Source: Shigella phage ShigP1
Sequence record: PQ818763
Length of the DNA stretch: 64,000 nt
Strand: one strand, 5' to 3'
In this document: in pieces, positions 5,367 through 30,861 of the stretch
How the letters are laid out: every line of letters starts with the position of its first letter
Position numbering within the stretch: the stretch's first letter is position 1
Made by a program: the position numbers and the translations under genes
The notes under the pieces: generated by a model
The model's database searches: none
What the model saw: the letters and a program-made list of their open reading frames with translations, nothing else
What the model was told of the DNA's origin: nothing

Positions 5367-5442
5367 TGGTGCGCCCTACAGGACTCGAACCTGTAACCAA
5401 TAGCTTAGAAGGCTACTGCTCTATCCATTGAGCTAAGAGCGC
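5367..5442 (-). tRNA. tRNA-Arg (anticodon UCU)
   Basis: Hand fold: acceptor GCGCTCT/AGGGCGC, D-arm GCTC-AATGGATA-GAGC, anticodon stem GTAGC/GCTAT with loop CTTCTAA, T-arm ACAGG-TTCGAGT-CCTGT, discriminator A, encoded CCA; 76 nt. Confidence 0.8.
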
Positions 5443-8734: not shown

Positions 8735-9636
8735 TTACCACTCGTAACTTACACCAGCGCCCAGAACAGCGTCACTCTCTGAAGTCATTGCCACTGATGC
8801 TTTAGTTACTACGTTTTCATTGAAACGAGCACTAACACCAATAGCAAGAGCAGATTCACCATCGTAAGCACCTACCCCAGCACCAACAGAGAAAGCAGAT
8901 CCTTGACTTACTTGCGGGATGTTAGCCATTGCAGCCACGCCAGAAATACCAGCAGAGGCATGATCACGGTTACGGTCTACTTGTTTTTGCAAAGAAGCAA
9001 AACGTTTGTTGGTGGATTGTTCCAGAGCTTTGATAGATTTGGCGTTAGCATTAACGGCAGACATATCTGCATCTTTACCATTTTTGCCATTTAATCCGTC
9101 AACGCCATTCAAACCTGCTGCACCAGTTAGGCCAGTTTCGCCTTTCTTACCATCTGCACCAGAATCACCTTTTTCACCTTGAGCGCCATCTTTACCATCA
9201 ATGCCATCTTTACCATTGATGCCATCTTTACCATCAATGCCATCTTTACCATCAATGCCATCTTNNNNNNNNNNNNNNNNNNNNNNNNNNNNNNNNNNNN
9301 NNNNNNNNNNNNNNNNNNNNNNNNNNNNNNNNNNNNNNNNNNNNNNNNNNNNNNNNNNNCAATGCCATCTTTACCATCAATGCCATCTTTACCATCAATG
9401 CCATTAGTACCATTGATGCCAGCCGATCCAGTATCACCTTTTAAGCCCTGCTCTCCGCGATCACCCTTGTCACCTTTCGGACCTTGTTCGCCTTGAATAC
9501 CCTGTTCTCCTTTATCACCTTTCGGCCCCTGCTGGACTTCACACTGTTTAGAGTGTGAGCATTTGTCAGAATGAGCAAAGGATGGGGCACTAATGGCAGA
9601 TAAAACTAGAATAGCTGACAATGCAAATGCTTTCAT
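8735..9636 (-). CDS. secreted collagen-like protein with YadA-type C-terminal anchor (trimeric-autotransporter-like); interrupted by assembly gap
   Basis: Signal peptide MKAFALSAILVLSAISAPSFA; G-X-Y triplets on both sides of the N-run; (IDGKDG)n encoded by an 18-bp tandem repeat; C-terminus GISGVAAMANIPQ...VGAGVGAYDGESALAIGVSARF...LGAGVSYEW matches the YadA anchor pattern; track ORFs 9127-9708 and 8735-9112 are the two halves put out of frame by the gap. Confidence 0.6.
9185..9410 (-). repeat. 18-bp tandem repeat (CATTGATGGTAAAGATGG on the coding strand) with N-run 9265-9359 inside
   Basis: At least 4 copies left of the gap and about 3 right of it; the gap is flanked by identical repeat units. 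Confidence 0.85.
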
Positions 9637-9661
9637 TTCATGGTTTCCTATATAATAGATA

Positions 9662-9717
9662 CAAAAAAGCCTCCAATTAAGGAGGCGGTAACGCAAAAAG
9701 CCGCCCAAAGGCGGCTA
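9662..9717 (-). terminator. tandem rho-independent terminators (minus strand)
   Basis: Hairpins AGCCGCC-TTTG-GGCGGCT and GCCTCC-TTAATT-GGAGGC, each followed by a T-run on the minus strand. Confidence 0.6.
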
Positions 9718-26219: not shown

Positions 26220-28622
26220 ATGATCGTTTATAATAACCAAGCACCTGATGCAGTGAATAACGTTGGGCAGTTTGGTGCTACTGAAGGCTCTATCGGGGCT
26301 TATAAGCAAGCAGCAGAATATGCAGCTGACTCCAAATATTGGGCACTGTTAGCAGAATCTAAGTTTGGTACAATTGATGATTTAATCGCTGAAGTAGAAC
26401 GTCTATATCAACAGGGTGTTCTGATGAAGCAGGATATTGAAGATCTTAAGCAGGATTTTAAGGATCAAGATGCTCGTTTGATGACTCTGATTGCCCAAAC
26501 CAACGCAGCAGTATCGGATGCTAATAATGCCGTTGCTCTCATTAACCAAAAACTTATTGAAGTCCAGAATCAGCTTGATGTTCTGTTAGGAATGTCTGTT
26601 GATGTAACAACTCTCCCTCCGGGAACTCCGGCTACTGGCTCTTTTAATCCTAACACTGGTGTAATCTCTTTAGGTATTCCAGAAGGTGATCCCGGAAAAG
26701 ATGGTTCTGTTAAGGATTTGGATACAGCACCTACAGGTGTTCCAGAGCTAGGTGATTTAGGTTTCTATGTTGACAAAGATGACAATACCGTCCACAAAAC
26801 TACTCTAGATAACATTGCTAATTTAATCCCATCTGTTCGTTCTGTCTCTATTAACGGCGGTCCAGCTCTTGATGGAGAGGTTGCTCTAACACTTAACAAA
26901 GAGACGGTAGGTTTAGGGAATGTTCTGAACGTTGCTCAGTACAGTCGTCAAGAGATTAATGACAAGTTTGATAAAACCACCAAGACATATCAATCTAAAG
27001 CAGAAGCTGATGCTGACGCTCAGTATCGCCAAGTTGGTGAGAAGGTCTTAGTTTGGGCAGCTACTAAGTATGAATTTTATACTGTTGCTGCTAACAAAAC
27101 ATTAACTCCTGTTAAAACTGAAGGTAGAATTCTTACTGTTAATTCCCGTTCTCCAGACTCCAGTGGTAATATTGACATTACCATTCCAACAGGAAACCCT
27201 TCTCTATATCTTGGTGAGATGGTAATGTTCCCTTATGACCCAACGAAGAATATCTCCTATCCGGGCGTTCTTCCAGCCGATGGTCGTCTAGTGTCTAAAG
27301 AGTCTGCTTCAGATTTAGGCCCATCCCTTGTCAGTGGACAACTTCCTGTTGTTTCTGAAACTGAATGGCAAGCAGGGGCTAAACAATACTTCTCTTGGGG
27401 TAAATTGGCAGATGGTATTACCGATGCAGATTCTACTAATTTTATCAACATTCGACTTCCTGATTGGACTGGAGGGGAGGCAATAAGAGCACCAGATTCT
27501 GATAAAGACTCTCAGTACAATGGGTCTGTACAGGCTCAGAAACCTTATGTTGTTACTGTAAATAACCAAGCTCCTGATGAGATTACTGGTAATGTGAACA
27601 TCTCCAGATCAATTTTAGGTGCTGCCGCTTCTGGTACAAACTCTGATATAACATCCCTCACGGGACTCACTACAGCACTGTCTGTCACACAAGGAGGCAC
27701 TGGAGCTAAAGACGCTGCTAGTGCTCGTTCTAATCTAGGTCTNNNNNNNNNNNNNNNNNNNNNNNNNNNNNNNNNNNNNNNNNNNNNNNNNNNNNNNNNN
27801 NNNNNNNNNNNNNNNNNNNNNNNNNNNNNNNNNNNNNNTGCTGCTAGTGCTCGTTCTAATCTAGGGTTGGGAAGTGTTTCCACTCTGGATAATGTACCTA
27901 TTGCTAATGGTGGGACAGGGGCTGGAGATGCTGCTGGTGCAAGGTTCAATATTGGAGCGCTAAGTAACACCCCAGCAAATTCAGGCGTAGGTGGTACTGG
28001 GGATCGTGTCCAACATGCCTCCGGGAACGGCCTGTTTACTTTAGACTTGTTTAACTGCTACTGGTATATGCAGCCAGAGGATACTAACTTCTGGATTGCC
28101 CACGGTGTGTCATATGCAGGGTCTGGTGGCGAAGCCTCACAATACGGTCGCATATCTTACGCAATAAAGATTGCAGACGGAACAATAAAATATGTCCATT
28201 GTCTTACAAACAAAAACACCACTGTTGATGTAAACGGATTTATCAAAGCGGCATCTCCGGTAGTTCATATTTACTCCGACGGTCGATATGAGACGAACGA
28301 GGAATCTGAGGGGGTTAATGTCATTCGGCAAGGTGTTGGTGAGTACTTGATTACCGGTTGCCTTGGCTTAAACGCAGATGCAAAATGGGGAGGCATTGAC
28401 GGCGGCTTTGAAATCCCTACTGACCGCAACAAACAACCTAGGGTTTGGCTGGACTATGAGATTAAAGAAGATGGTTCTATTTTAGTTAAAACCCATCACA
28501 GAACCCATCCAACCTCTCCGGTTTTTGCTAGAAATGAGATAGAAGGTTTTTCTGACGGTGATCCTATTGATATCCCGAGTGATGCTTTTATTTCAGTTCG
28601 TGTTGAAATGCCTTCTGAGTAA
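26220..28622 (+). CDS. tail fibre or tail spike protein, contains assembly gap
   Basis: 800 aa; repeated motif AASARSNLG either side of N-run 27743-27838; Gly-rich repeats GGTGA...AAGARFNIG. Confidence 0.55.
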   Translation: MIVYNNQAPDAVNNVGQFGATEGSIGAYKQAAEYAADSKYWALLAESKFGTIDDLIAEVERLYQQGVLMKQDIEDLKQDFKDQDARLMTLIAQTNAAVSDANNAVALINQKLIEVQNQLDVLLGMSVDVTTLPPGTPATGSFNPNTGVISLGIPEGDPGKDGSVKDLDTAPTGVPELGDLGFYVDKDDNTVHKTTLDNIANLIPSVRSVSINGGPALDGEVALTLNKETVGLGNVLNVAQYSRQEINDKFDKTTKTYQSKAEADADAQYRQVGEKVLVWAATKYEFYTVAANKTLTPVKTEGRILTVNSRSPDSSGNIDITIPTGNPSLYLGEMVMFPYDPTKNISYPGVLPADGRLVSKESASDLGPSLVSGQLPVVSETEWQAGAKQYFSWGKLADGITDADSTNFINIRLPDWTGGEAIRAPDSDKDSQYNGSVQAQKPYVVTVNNQAPDEITGNVNISRSILGAAASGTNSDITSLTGLTTALSVTQGGTGAKDAASARSNLGXXXXXXXXXXXXXXXXXXXXXXXXXXXXXXXXXAASARSNLGLGSVSTLDNVPIANGGTGAGDAAGARFNIGALSNTPANSGVGGTGDRVQHASGNGLFTLDLFNCYWYMQPEDTNFWIAHGVSYAGSGGEASQYGRISYAIKIADGTIKYVHCLTNKNTTVDVNGFIKAASPVVHIYSDGRYETNEESEGVNVIRQGVGEYLITGCLGLNADAKWGGIDGGFEIPTDRNKQPRVWLDYEIKEDGSILVKTHHRTHPTSPVFARNEIEGFSDGDPIDIPSDAFISVRVEMPSE

Positions 28623-28662: not shown

Positions 28663-30861
28663 ATGTCTAGAGAATTAATGCCCAAATCTGGTATAATGAT
28701 GCCTCATGTGGTTGTAACCAGAGACGCGGCTGTTGTTGGGGTTTCTACTGTAGATGGACAGGCTGGAGCTATTAACCTCACCGGAAAATATTTACAGAAA
28801 ACCGACGCAGCTGCTACCTATCAAACTAAAACAGAGGGTGCATCTAAAGATTTTGTGCTGGATTCGATTCAACCTATTATGTCTGGTGCGCTGTTCCGAG
28901 AAGACCCTTGGGTTGTTAATGATACCCCATTCCGTTCTACTGGAGCTAATGGTGTAGAATCAGTTGATATGATGAAAGTTACTACTGATAACTCAATCAA
29001 GATTGGTAGTTATGCCTCTTCAGTTCAAGGTGTAGAGATTCATTCTGCTGGTCGTCTTCAGGTTGTTGACCAGAATGACTCTGGGGTAGAAACTAAGTAT
29101 CCAGTTTATTCTAAACGTTACCGTCCTGAGATTGAGGATTTGCCTTTTGCTGCAATTGGTTCTTATGTTAAAGACTCTAAAGGTCGTACGGTAGGTGTTA
29201 CTCGTACAGGGATTAACTCTGATATCAAACAGCTCACACAGAAAGTTACTTTCACTCAACCAGTAACTGTCCCTGATGCAGTTGGTGATTATGATGCGGT
29301 TACTTTGAGACAGCTTCGAAACAGTGGTGGTGGCTCTGGTGGTCCTACGATGAGCGGTATCTCTAACTTTGGTATTGGTGATTTCCATTTACGTGACAGT
29401 CGAGCTTTTATTCCAGCTTTTGAGGTAACGTCAGACGGTCAGCTTCTTAATCGTTCAGAGTACCCAGATCTCTGGGCTTATGCACAGCTGTTATCCCCTA
29501 TCTCAGATTCTGAATGGCTTAGTGATGCCCAAAAACGTGGACAGTACTCTACTGGTGATGGTTCTACTACTTTCCGCGTTCCAGACCGCAACGGGGTTCA
29601 GGTCGGTTCTATTAGGGAGCTATTTGGTCGCGGTGATGGTGGTACATCATCCAACGATGGTGTTATCTATGATTCTGCTGCACCTAATATCAAAGGTAAG
29701 GTCGCTGGTGTATCAGCCGGGACTTATGCAGGGATATTCGGGACGTATGTGCAAGATTCATTCTATACGGATAACAGTTTGTATCCGGCTGGTGGAGGGG
29801 ACACTATACCTCCGGGGTCCGGTGCAGTTGATGGACGTAATAATACTCTAGTCTTCGACGCAAGCCAGTCCAACCCAGTTTATGGTCGTTATAGTATCTC
29901 TGACAATATTATACCGAGAAACTTTGTGGGGGTTTGGACTATTCGTGCTCATGGTGGATTTGTTGCTGCTAATACTTCTTGGTCTGTTATTAATAGTGAC
30001 ACCACACGACCTTCCAACGGAACGAAAGTTTCTAGTGGGTCAGTTGTCTCTGAGTATAAAATCGGTTCAGAAGTAGAAGCTTCTACTACTCTCAAAACTG
30101 ATGCCTACATCAACGGAGCTTACTATGGAATCATTGACGTCTATAATAAAACTAAAGGAGTTACCAAGCAGTTAGCTTTCGACGATTCTGGTACACTGAA
30201 TTCTGATAGGTATGTTTCTAGATTTGGCACTTTGATATCTTGGAGTGAAACAGGAGCTAGGAAAGGAACATTCTCCATGGACAACCAAGGGATAGGGTCT
30301 GACTTCTCCTTCAATTCCATACTAAGTGCTTCTCAAACATCTAGTGGGGGATACAAGACCACCACTCATGTTGGCATGATTCACAACGACGCCGGAACTT
30401 TTGCCGATTCTTGCTGGCACGTTGCAGGTGATGAAGACAACAAATACGGTTGTCGCCTAACCCTTCGACCAAACAGGAATGAGATTTTCTATTATACTTG
30501 GCAACCCAGCTCTACTGGAACATATACCCTTGCCTTGAATCCTGTGTCAGATGAAAGGTTAAAACATAATATCCAAGATATTTCCCCTGAGAAAGCTATC
30601 AAGGCTATCAAAGGTTTGGATTTCAAATCGTTTGTGTACAACAGTGATGAACAAGGAAGAACTCGTCGCGGTGTTATTGCACAGCAAGCAGAAAAGGTAG
30701 AACCTCTTTATGTTAAGACTCGTAGGTTCCACGACAATGATGGTGTAGAGCAAGAACAGAAAGAGCTAGACTCAGCTCCTATGCTCCTTGATACTATGCA
30801 GGTTGTTCAAGACCTTCTGAAGCGTATTGAAGTTCTAGAAGCAAAACTAGCAGAGAGGTAA
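28663..30861 (+). CDS. tail fibre protein with C-terminal intramolecular chaperone (S74-like) domain
   Basis: C-terminus SDERLKHNIQDISPEKAIKAIKGLDFKSFVYN...GVIAQQAEKVEP... matches the auto-cleaving chaperone domain of phage fibres and endosialidases. Confidence 0.6.
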   Translation: MSRELMPKSGIMMPHVVVTRDAAVVGVSTVDGQAGAINLTGKYLQKTDAAATYQTKTEGASKDFVLDSIQPIMSGALFREDPWVVNDTPFRSTGANGVESVDMMKVTTDNSIKIGSYASSVQGVEIHSAGRLQVVDQNDSGVETKYPVYSKRYRPEIEDLPFAAIGSYVKDSKGRTVGVTRTGINSDIKQLTQKVTFTQPVTVPDAVGDYDAVTLRQLRNSGGGSGGPTMSGISNFGIGDFHLRDSRAFIPAFEVTSDGQLLNRSEYPDLWAYAQLLSPISDSEWLSDAQKRGQYSTGDGSTTFRVPDRNGVQVGSIRELFGRGDGGTSSNDGVIYDSAAPNIKGKVAGVSAGTYAGIFGTYVQDSFYTDNSLYPAGGGDTIPPGSGAVDGRNNTLVFDASQSNPVYGRYSISDNIIPRNFVGVWTIRAHGGFVAANTSWSVINSDTTRPSNGTKVSSGSVVSEYKIGSEVEASTTLKTDAYINGAYYGIIDVYNKTKGVTKQLAFDDSGTLNSDRYVSRFGTLISWSETGARKGTFSMDNQGIGSDFSFNSILSASQTSSGGYKTTTHVGMIHNDAGTFADSCWHVAGDEDNKYGCRLTLRPNRNEIFYYTWQPSSTGTYTLALNPVSDERLKHNIQDISPEKAIKAIKGLDFKSFVYNSDEQGRTRRGVIAQQAEKVEPLYVKTRRFHDNDGVEQEQKELDSAPMLLDTMQVVQDLLKRIEVLEAKLAER

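Follow-up and report, generated by a model that had tools for sequence, protein, structure and literature searches.

The two runs of N in the window, that is the whole 64 kb stretch of DNA analysed here, are assembly gaps caused by repeats, an artefact rather than biology. They very probably mark places where a short-read assembly using small words stopped at the only two repeats available to stop it, the 95 and 96 N being placeholders and not measurements of the missing sequence. The window (42% G+C) matches phiEco32-like podophages (Kuravirus, Gordonclarkvirinae) at ~95-99.5% identity in all regions tested, and the closest phage-database records fall within the same 95-99.5% range. Exact-pattern scans with flank sequences and with a SNP specific to the window gave no match among viral, genome or metagenome contigs. 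It carries a single tRNA gene, tRNA-Arg(TCT), at 5367-5442 on the minus strand (ARAGORN, and Rfam with 72.4 bits). Ns are found at two places only:

9265..9359, no strand: N-run 1, 95 N, scaffold gap within an 18-bp tandem array
27743..27838, no strand: N-run 2, 96 N, scaffold gap in place of ~252 nt, most of them unique, on the basis of phage MN03 and of contigs L022, L027 and L029

An exhaustive k-mer search of the 64 kb, covering both strands and all distances, returned no exact repeat of at least 19 nt that does not adjoin an N-run. Tandem Repeats Finder, applied to the whole window, reported arrays scoring at least 60 at gap 1 only. As the N-runs sit at the window's only exact repeats of at least 19 nt, their placement is driven by these repeats, far beyond what chance would produce. 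The two interrupted genes belong to known families, a phage-borne collagen/YadA-anchor protein at gap 1 and the Kuravirus long tail fibre proximal protein at gap 2.

The gene at gap 1 and its parts are the following:

8735..9636, minus strand: secreted collagen-like protein with a YadA-type membrane anchor, homologue of the phiEco32 gp119 'agglutinating adhesin', assigned from Pfam and from the match of its flanks to EcP-vB; falsely frameshifted by N-run 1
9574..9636, minus strand: probable Sec signal peptide MKAFALSAILVLSAISAPSFA, read by eye from the translation
9360..9421, minus strand: 18-bp tandem array on the promoter-proximal side of gap 1, 2.5 copies at 100% up to 9404, 3.4 degenerate copies up to 9421 (Tandem Repeats Finder)
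9185..9264, minus strand: 18-bp tandem array on the promoter-distal side of gap 1, 4.4 copies with 93% matches, unit GGCATTGATGGTAAAGAT encoding GIDGKD (Tandem Repeats Finder)
8738..8917, minus strand: YadA_anchor domain, the final 60 codons up to the ...GVSYEW end (C-terminal fragment, residues 116-175, on profile positions 1-60 of 60)

From its N-terminus, the adhesin thus displays a probable signal peptide, a short Cys-containing segment, a collagen G-X-Y stalk and the YadA anchor. Read by eye, MKAFALSAILVLSAISAPSFA/HSD shows n, h and c regions like those of a typical signal peptide. The Pfam Collagen profile (PF01391, cut-off 27.2) is matched in both halves of the gene, with 43.5 and 41.3 bits, and the uninterrupted GXY triplets visible beside the gap number 18 on one side and 21 on the other. 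At the extreme C-terminus, YadA_anchor (PF03895) is matched over its full 60 positions with 70.9 bits for a cut-off of 22.7. Collagen GXY repeats trimerise by nature. The adhesin is predicted to be a Sec-exported, trimeric surface protein with a YadA-type anchor; whereas the passenger of YadA is composed of a head and a coiled-coil stalk, that of the window protein is the collagen GXY repeat. Terminator-like hairpins surround the gene, two upstream (9716-9699 and 9686-9669) and one just past the stop codon (8727-8710). Of the 10 related contigs examined, 6 lack it (L013-L016, L018 and L019), SU10 among them, the neighbouring genes being otherwise the same. The gene for this collagen/YadA-anchor protein resembles an accessory cassette that is self-contained.

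The first-pass annotation had placed N-run 1 inside an 18-bp (IDGKDG)n repeat with identical repeat units on each side, and both points stand here: the arrays detected by Tandem Repeats Finder adjoin the gap on both sides, their minus-strand translation reads IDGKDG in frame, and the 30 nt before the gap (9235-9264) are identical to the 30 nt after it (9360-9389). As scaffolded, the gene measures 902 nt, composed of a 5' part of 277 nt, a 3' part of 530 nt and the 95 N. The two halves lie in different frames, and the list of open reading frames accordingly gives them as separate pieces, 9127-9708 and 8735-9112. To keep the frame the gap should be a multiple of 3, and to keep the phase of the repeat it should equal 6+18n; 95 satisfies neither of these and 96 would satisfy both. 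Two out-of-frame ORFs appear in the list because the 95 N miss both the frame and the 18-bp phase by one base. The split of the collagen gene in two is therefore artificial, as had been claimed, and here the N-run does break a gene, by a false frameshift.

All 807 visible bases of this gene are those of the intact EcP-vB gene (277/277 and 530/530). Merging the flanks on their 30-nt overlap restores exactly the EcP-vB gene, 777 nt long with 3 IDGKDG units. An intact ORF is also obtained with a 12-nt overlap, giving 4 units, or with any fill of 6+18n, giving at least 5 units (10 for a fill of 96 nt). Since all these solutions give an intact ORF, the copy number of IDGKDG is fixed only as at least 3, in agreement with the earlier view that it could not be read from the record. 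The real adhesin gene is almost certainly intact, with at least 3 IDGKDG units and possibly more, 3 meaning identity with EcP-vB.

The simplest of these solutions, a sub-case of the scaffold-gap explanation, supposes that nothing is missing at gap 1: two contig ends overlapping by 30 nt were left unmerged, and the true gene is the 777-nt, 3-unit allele. We consider this possible, although we would not favour it. The identity of the 30-nt ends and the base-for-base return to the EcP-vB gene speak for it, as does the rest of the flank, which is 99.5-99.8% identical to EcP-vB, EcM-vB1 and EcK-vB. On the other hand, reads of at least 75 nt normally span a 54-nt array, and failure of the assembly suggests a longer one; the 12-nt overlap and every 6+18n fill fit equally well; and the comparable 30-nt geometry at gap 2 is no true overlap, as only 27 of 30 positions agree there.

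Among relatives, the YadA-like protein of EcP-vB, EcM-vB1 and EcK-vB (XTK89988.1, XTB81317.1) has the same probable signal peptide, Cys motif, GXY stalk and YadA anchor as that of the window. Their records show 3 IDGKDG units in an intact 777-nt ORF, whereas the window has 30 extra repeat bases and 95 N. In phiEco32, where a yadA homologue was already noted (PMC3728262), gp119 (ABY52920.1) occupies the same locus as the window gene, between a 147-aa gene and a cell-wall hydrolase gene. Its C-terminal ~150 aa, including the YadA anchor, are nearly identical to those of the window, but it displays another N-terminal allele (GNNGNGNGGCGVGQ...), a shorter collagen stalk and 2 IDGKDG units. KM01 has 0 of these units, EK5 has 1 and phiEco32 has 2; each of the three Egyptian phages (EcP-vB, EcM-vB1, EcK-vB) has 3, and the phiEc_1 contig (L017) has 4. 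Over 120 clusters of adhesin homologues, protein length extends from 189 to 440 aa and the stalk from 12 to 58 GXY triplets, and none of these clusters contains 4 or more identical tandem hexapeptides. The gene is intact in all relatives examined, only the stalk length varying.

At least two N-terminal adhesin alleles are carried on a nearly identical C-terminal half, MKAFALS...HSDKCSHSKQC and MKAIVLS...GNNGNGNGGCGVGQ (window 9360-9636 compared with phiEco32, L001, and EK5, L002). In the window, moreover, an adhesin allele of the EcP-vB type occurs together with a long fibre allele of the MN03 type, EcP-vB itself having apparently the short fibre form. This pairing of adhesin and fibre alleles points to mosaic recombination among kuraviruses.

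The second gap lies in the first of two consecutive fibre genes:

26220..28622, plus strand: long tail fibre proximal protein, homologue of SU10 gp12, 800 codons as scaffolded and probably 852, after the SU10_adaptor gene; its relatives carry PF25670
27692..27739, plus strand: left copy of a 48-nt direct repeat (GGTGAKDAASARSNLG); the two copies in MN03, 2193-2240 and 2475-2522, are 96% identical
27840..27865, plus strand: right copy of the 48-nt direct repeat, the visible 26 nt; the Ns cover its first 21 nt, and base 27839 (T) also belongs to the copy
28663..30861, plus strand: long tail fibre distal protein, at the position of SU10 gp13, with a Peptidase_S74 chaperone domain

An exact 26-nt repeat (27714-27739 and 27840-27865), encoding AASARSNLG, is found on either side of gap 2. 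The first-pass annotation was thus right to place this N-run between two AASARSNLG copies but not to see in it a tandem coding repeat: Tandem Repeats Finder detects none around gap 2, and none in the intact gene of MN03. In this MN03 gene, 282 nt separate the starts of the two 48-nt copies, the sequence in between is unique, and two further degenerate copies show 60-67% identity. Nor are the flanks identical at this gap, the 30-nt ends agreeing at 27 of 30 positions with each differing base fitting the corresponding MN03 copy. The left flank ends ...GGTGAKD-AASARSNLG-L (GAC...GGTCT), and the right flank begins T-GCTGCT...GGGTTG, encoding (N)AASARSNLGLGS. GAC and GGTCT on the left, and T and GGGTTG on the right, are specific to the long form of the fibre. 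Contrary to the notion that both N-runs break genes, the 96 Ns leave ORF 26220-28622 open, and its frame is kept only by the accident that 96 is divisible by 3.

In MN03, and likewise in the metagenome contigs L022, L027 and L029, the exact flanks of gap 2 are separated by 252 nt. In these relatives the 252-nt segment encodes SSIATLNTIPIANGGTGATTVDAARSNLSIDRVDQASGESRLLSPNKETYLFVDNNGWGCYSTSPGRVGDLALGVERGGTGAKN, an 84-aa module, and it is unique at the DNA level, with no additional AASARSNLG copies in series; the shaft module between the fibre repeats consists of a 30-aa unit followed by a 64-aa unit. Judged from these four relatives, the sequence hidden at gap 2 is probably unique and non-repetitive, and not the repeat sequence which the first-pass annotation had supposed. 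When the MN03 segment is put into the gap, an intact ORF of 852 aa is obtained, and we infer that the missing sequence resembles that of MN03. The 96 N would imply an 800-aa fibre and a 42-aa module spacing, neither of which occurs in 120 clusters of fibre homologues; in these, the distance between GGTG motifs is always 30 or 61-68 aa. With no 800-aa homologue and no such spacing, 96 N is not the real length of gap 2. As at gap 1, where 95 fits neither frame nor phase, the N count is arbitrary, in line with the previous claim. The real fibre protein of the window probably has 852 aa and not 800, so that 52 residues would be missing from the scaffolded form.

The closest relative is MN03 (99.5% identity), with a tail fibre of 852 aa (YP_010674078.1); the window differs from it at 11 of the 1523 bases visible before the gap and at 3 of the 784 visible after it. 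MN03 shares with the window the repeat copies and the junction bases, as well as the C-terminal PF25670 domain and the place of the gene behind that of the adaptor, and differs by its 252 nt where the window has 96 N, hence 852 aa for an apparent 800. Phage_tail_C_2 (PF25670), at the C-terminus, scores 202.5 bits in MN03, and it is in the 3' flank that the window differs from MN03 at the 3 of 784 bases. A 250-aa protein of the window is SU10_adaptor (PF24175), and the order adaptor, fibre, Peptidase_S74 fibre is found in all 10 contigs; the SU10 structure paper is the reference for gp12 as the long tail fibre proximal protein (PMC9509320).

KM01 and YW01 carry the same gene in a short form of 758 aa, at least 99% identical outside the module. 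They have a single copy of the 48-nt repeat and lack the 94-aa segment, whereas the window has both copies and the junction bases of the long form. The fibre matches of EcM-vB1, EcK-vB and EcP-vB are shorter by the same amount as those of KM01 and YW01. A deletion between the two repeats would yield just such a short fibre with a single copy. More generally, the fibre shaft appears as a succession of 30-aa and 61-68-aa modules, each ending with GGTGA..AR.NLG (P0121-P0240, L020-L029), and the number of modules varies from phage to phage, resulting in proteins of 758 to ~930 aa. The conserved motif DNA appears to be a recombination site for gain and loss of modules. The distal fibre protein has 732 aa, with the Peptidase_S74 intramolecular chaperone at residues 629-682, and an exact-protein look-up in a 153-billion-gene position index returned no sequence identical to it. 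The receptor-binding tip of the window phage may be a new variant.

How the gaps arose can be proposed from the direct observations above, namely the position of the gaps with respect to the repeats, the mismatch of frame and phase, the content of relatives at these places and the domain identities. A short-read assembly of the de Bruijn type with a word size of at most 26 would collapse the 18-bp array as well as the loop formed by the 48-nt repeat; this word size is deduced from the fact that a 26-nt exact repeat sufficed to stop the assembly. At gap 2, the 48-nt dispersed direct repeat would make a loop in the assembly graph, both copies would be retained and the ~252-nt segment between them would be lost by the assembler. 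The contigs would next be joined by placeholder Ns. Two independent size estimates are unlikely to agree within 1 nt, so a placeholder length is favoured.

Some features do not fit this scheme well. Common scaffolders use round placeholders of 10 or 100, and 95 and 96 are not such values, which counts against a placeholder. The 95 N is moreover one base from perfect phase, a coincidence with a chance of ~1 in 6. A simple break between de Bruijn unitigs is also difficult to reconcile with the gap-2 flanks, which run 3 nt past the left 26-mer and start 1 nt before the right one. The flank ends of the two gaps have a shared geometry (9235-9264/9360-9389 and 27713-27742/27839-27868), and in each case the two visible flanks add up to exactly 30 nt more than the shortest intact allele known. 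This 30-nt excess, together with the 95 and 96 lengths, looks like a systematic signature of the scaffold-building software. Particular assembler models, either overlaps with k=31 or a 100-N placeholder minus trimmed bases, were rejected, none fitting both gaps.

Alternatively, the lysate could have been heterogeneous, with mixed IDGKDG copy numbers and both long and short fibre alleles, the polymorphism itself stopping the assembler. Both loci are indeed polymorphic among near-identical relatives (0-4 IDGKDG units; fibre of 758 or 852 aa), the short fibre is the product expected of a deletion between the two repeats, and a repeat of 26-48 nt alone should not halt an assembler working at k above 48. 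We nevertheless regard a mixed lysate as unlikely, since the flank ends of gap 2 carry only long-form bases, and a small k accounts for both gaps without polymorphism, no other repeats of at least 19 nt being present. Slightly less likely still, in our opinion, is that the assembler failed on a phage population polymorphic at both loci, in which the IDGKDG array would slip to longer or shorter forms and the 94-aa fibre module would be lost by recombination between the 48-nt repeats.

The near-phase length of N-run 1 could be a sign that a real array of 10 units, with a 1-nt error, was masked base for base. Extended to both gaps, this amounts to length-preserving masks over real sequence, namely an IDGKDG array of 10 units that carries a 1-nt deletion and, in the fibre, a novel insert of 32 aa; the deletion would then correspond to a frameshifted adhesin gene or to a sequencing error. 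It is true that 95 is within one base of the in-phase 96, that 96 makes whole codons, that 10 units would bring the stalk to ~51 GXY triplets in total, inside the family range of 12-58, and that one sequence collection is described as containing stretches masked as N. Yet a repeat masker would also have covered the perfect copies visible on both sides and spared the unique sequence between the repeats, and a random mask would not hit the window's only two repeats. Furthermore, an 800-aa fibre or a 42-aa spacing occurs in no relative (120 clusters), the longest IDGKDG run in any relative is 4 with no cluster of the 120 having 4 or more identical tandem hexapeptides, and the homologous adhesin genes are all intact. 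We therefore hold length-preserving masks to be quite improbable.

Several other readings were considered and dismissed. Hard-masking of repeats or of low complexity would not leave perfect copies exposed beside gap 1, and the sequence that relatives have under gap 2 is unique; random or content-blind masking disagrees with the coincidence of both N-runs with these only repeats. Gap 2 as a contig-end overlap of the KM01 short form is contradicted by the 3 mismatches in the 30-nt ends, each as in the MN03 long form, and by the left junction, which is absent from KM01 and YW01. A natural 800-aa allele or 42-aa module has no counterpart in the 120 homologue clusters.

Scaffold gaps at these two repeats have direct consequences for annotation. 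The split collagen/YadA gene should be considered as one intact gene with the repeat number left open, and not as two ORFs or a pseudogene. Similarly, the 800-aa fibre should not be entered as a new allele, since it is most likely an MN03-like protein of 852 aa with 52 residues missing. Comparisons of fibre length, of host-range modules or of adhesin stalk length drawn from the window record would be wrong at the two N-run sites. What lies beneath is real and already known in kind, namely a variable collagen stalk on a phage-borne YadA-type protein and fibre modules bounded by GGTGA...ARSNLG. If the population proved to be polymorphic, the length of the adhesin stalk and that of the long tail fibre would be two fast-switching traits in one lysate.
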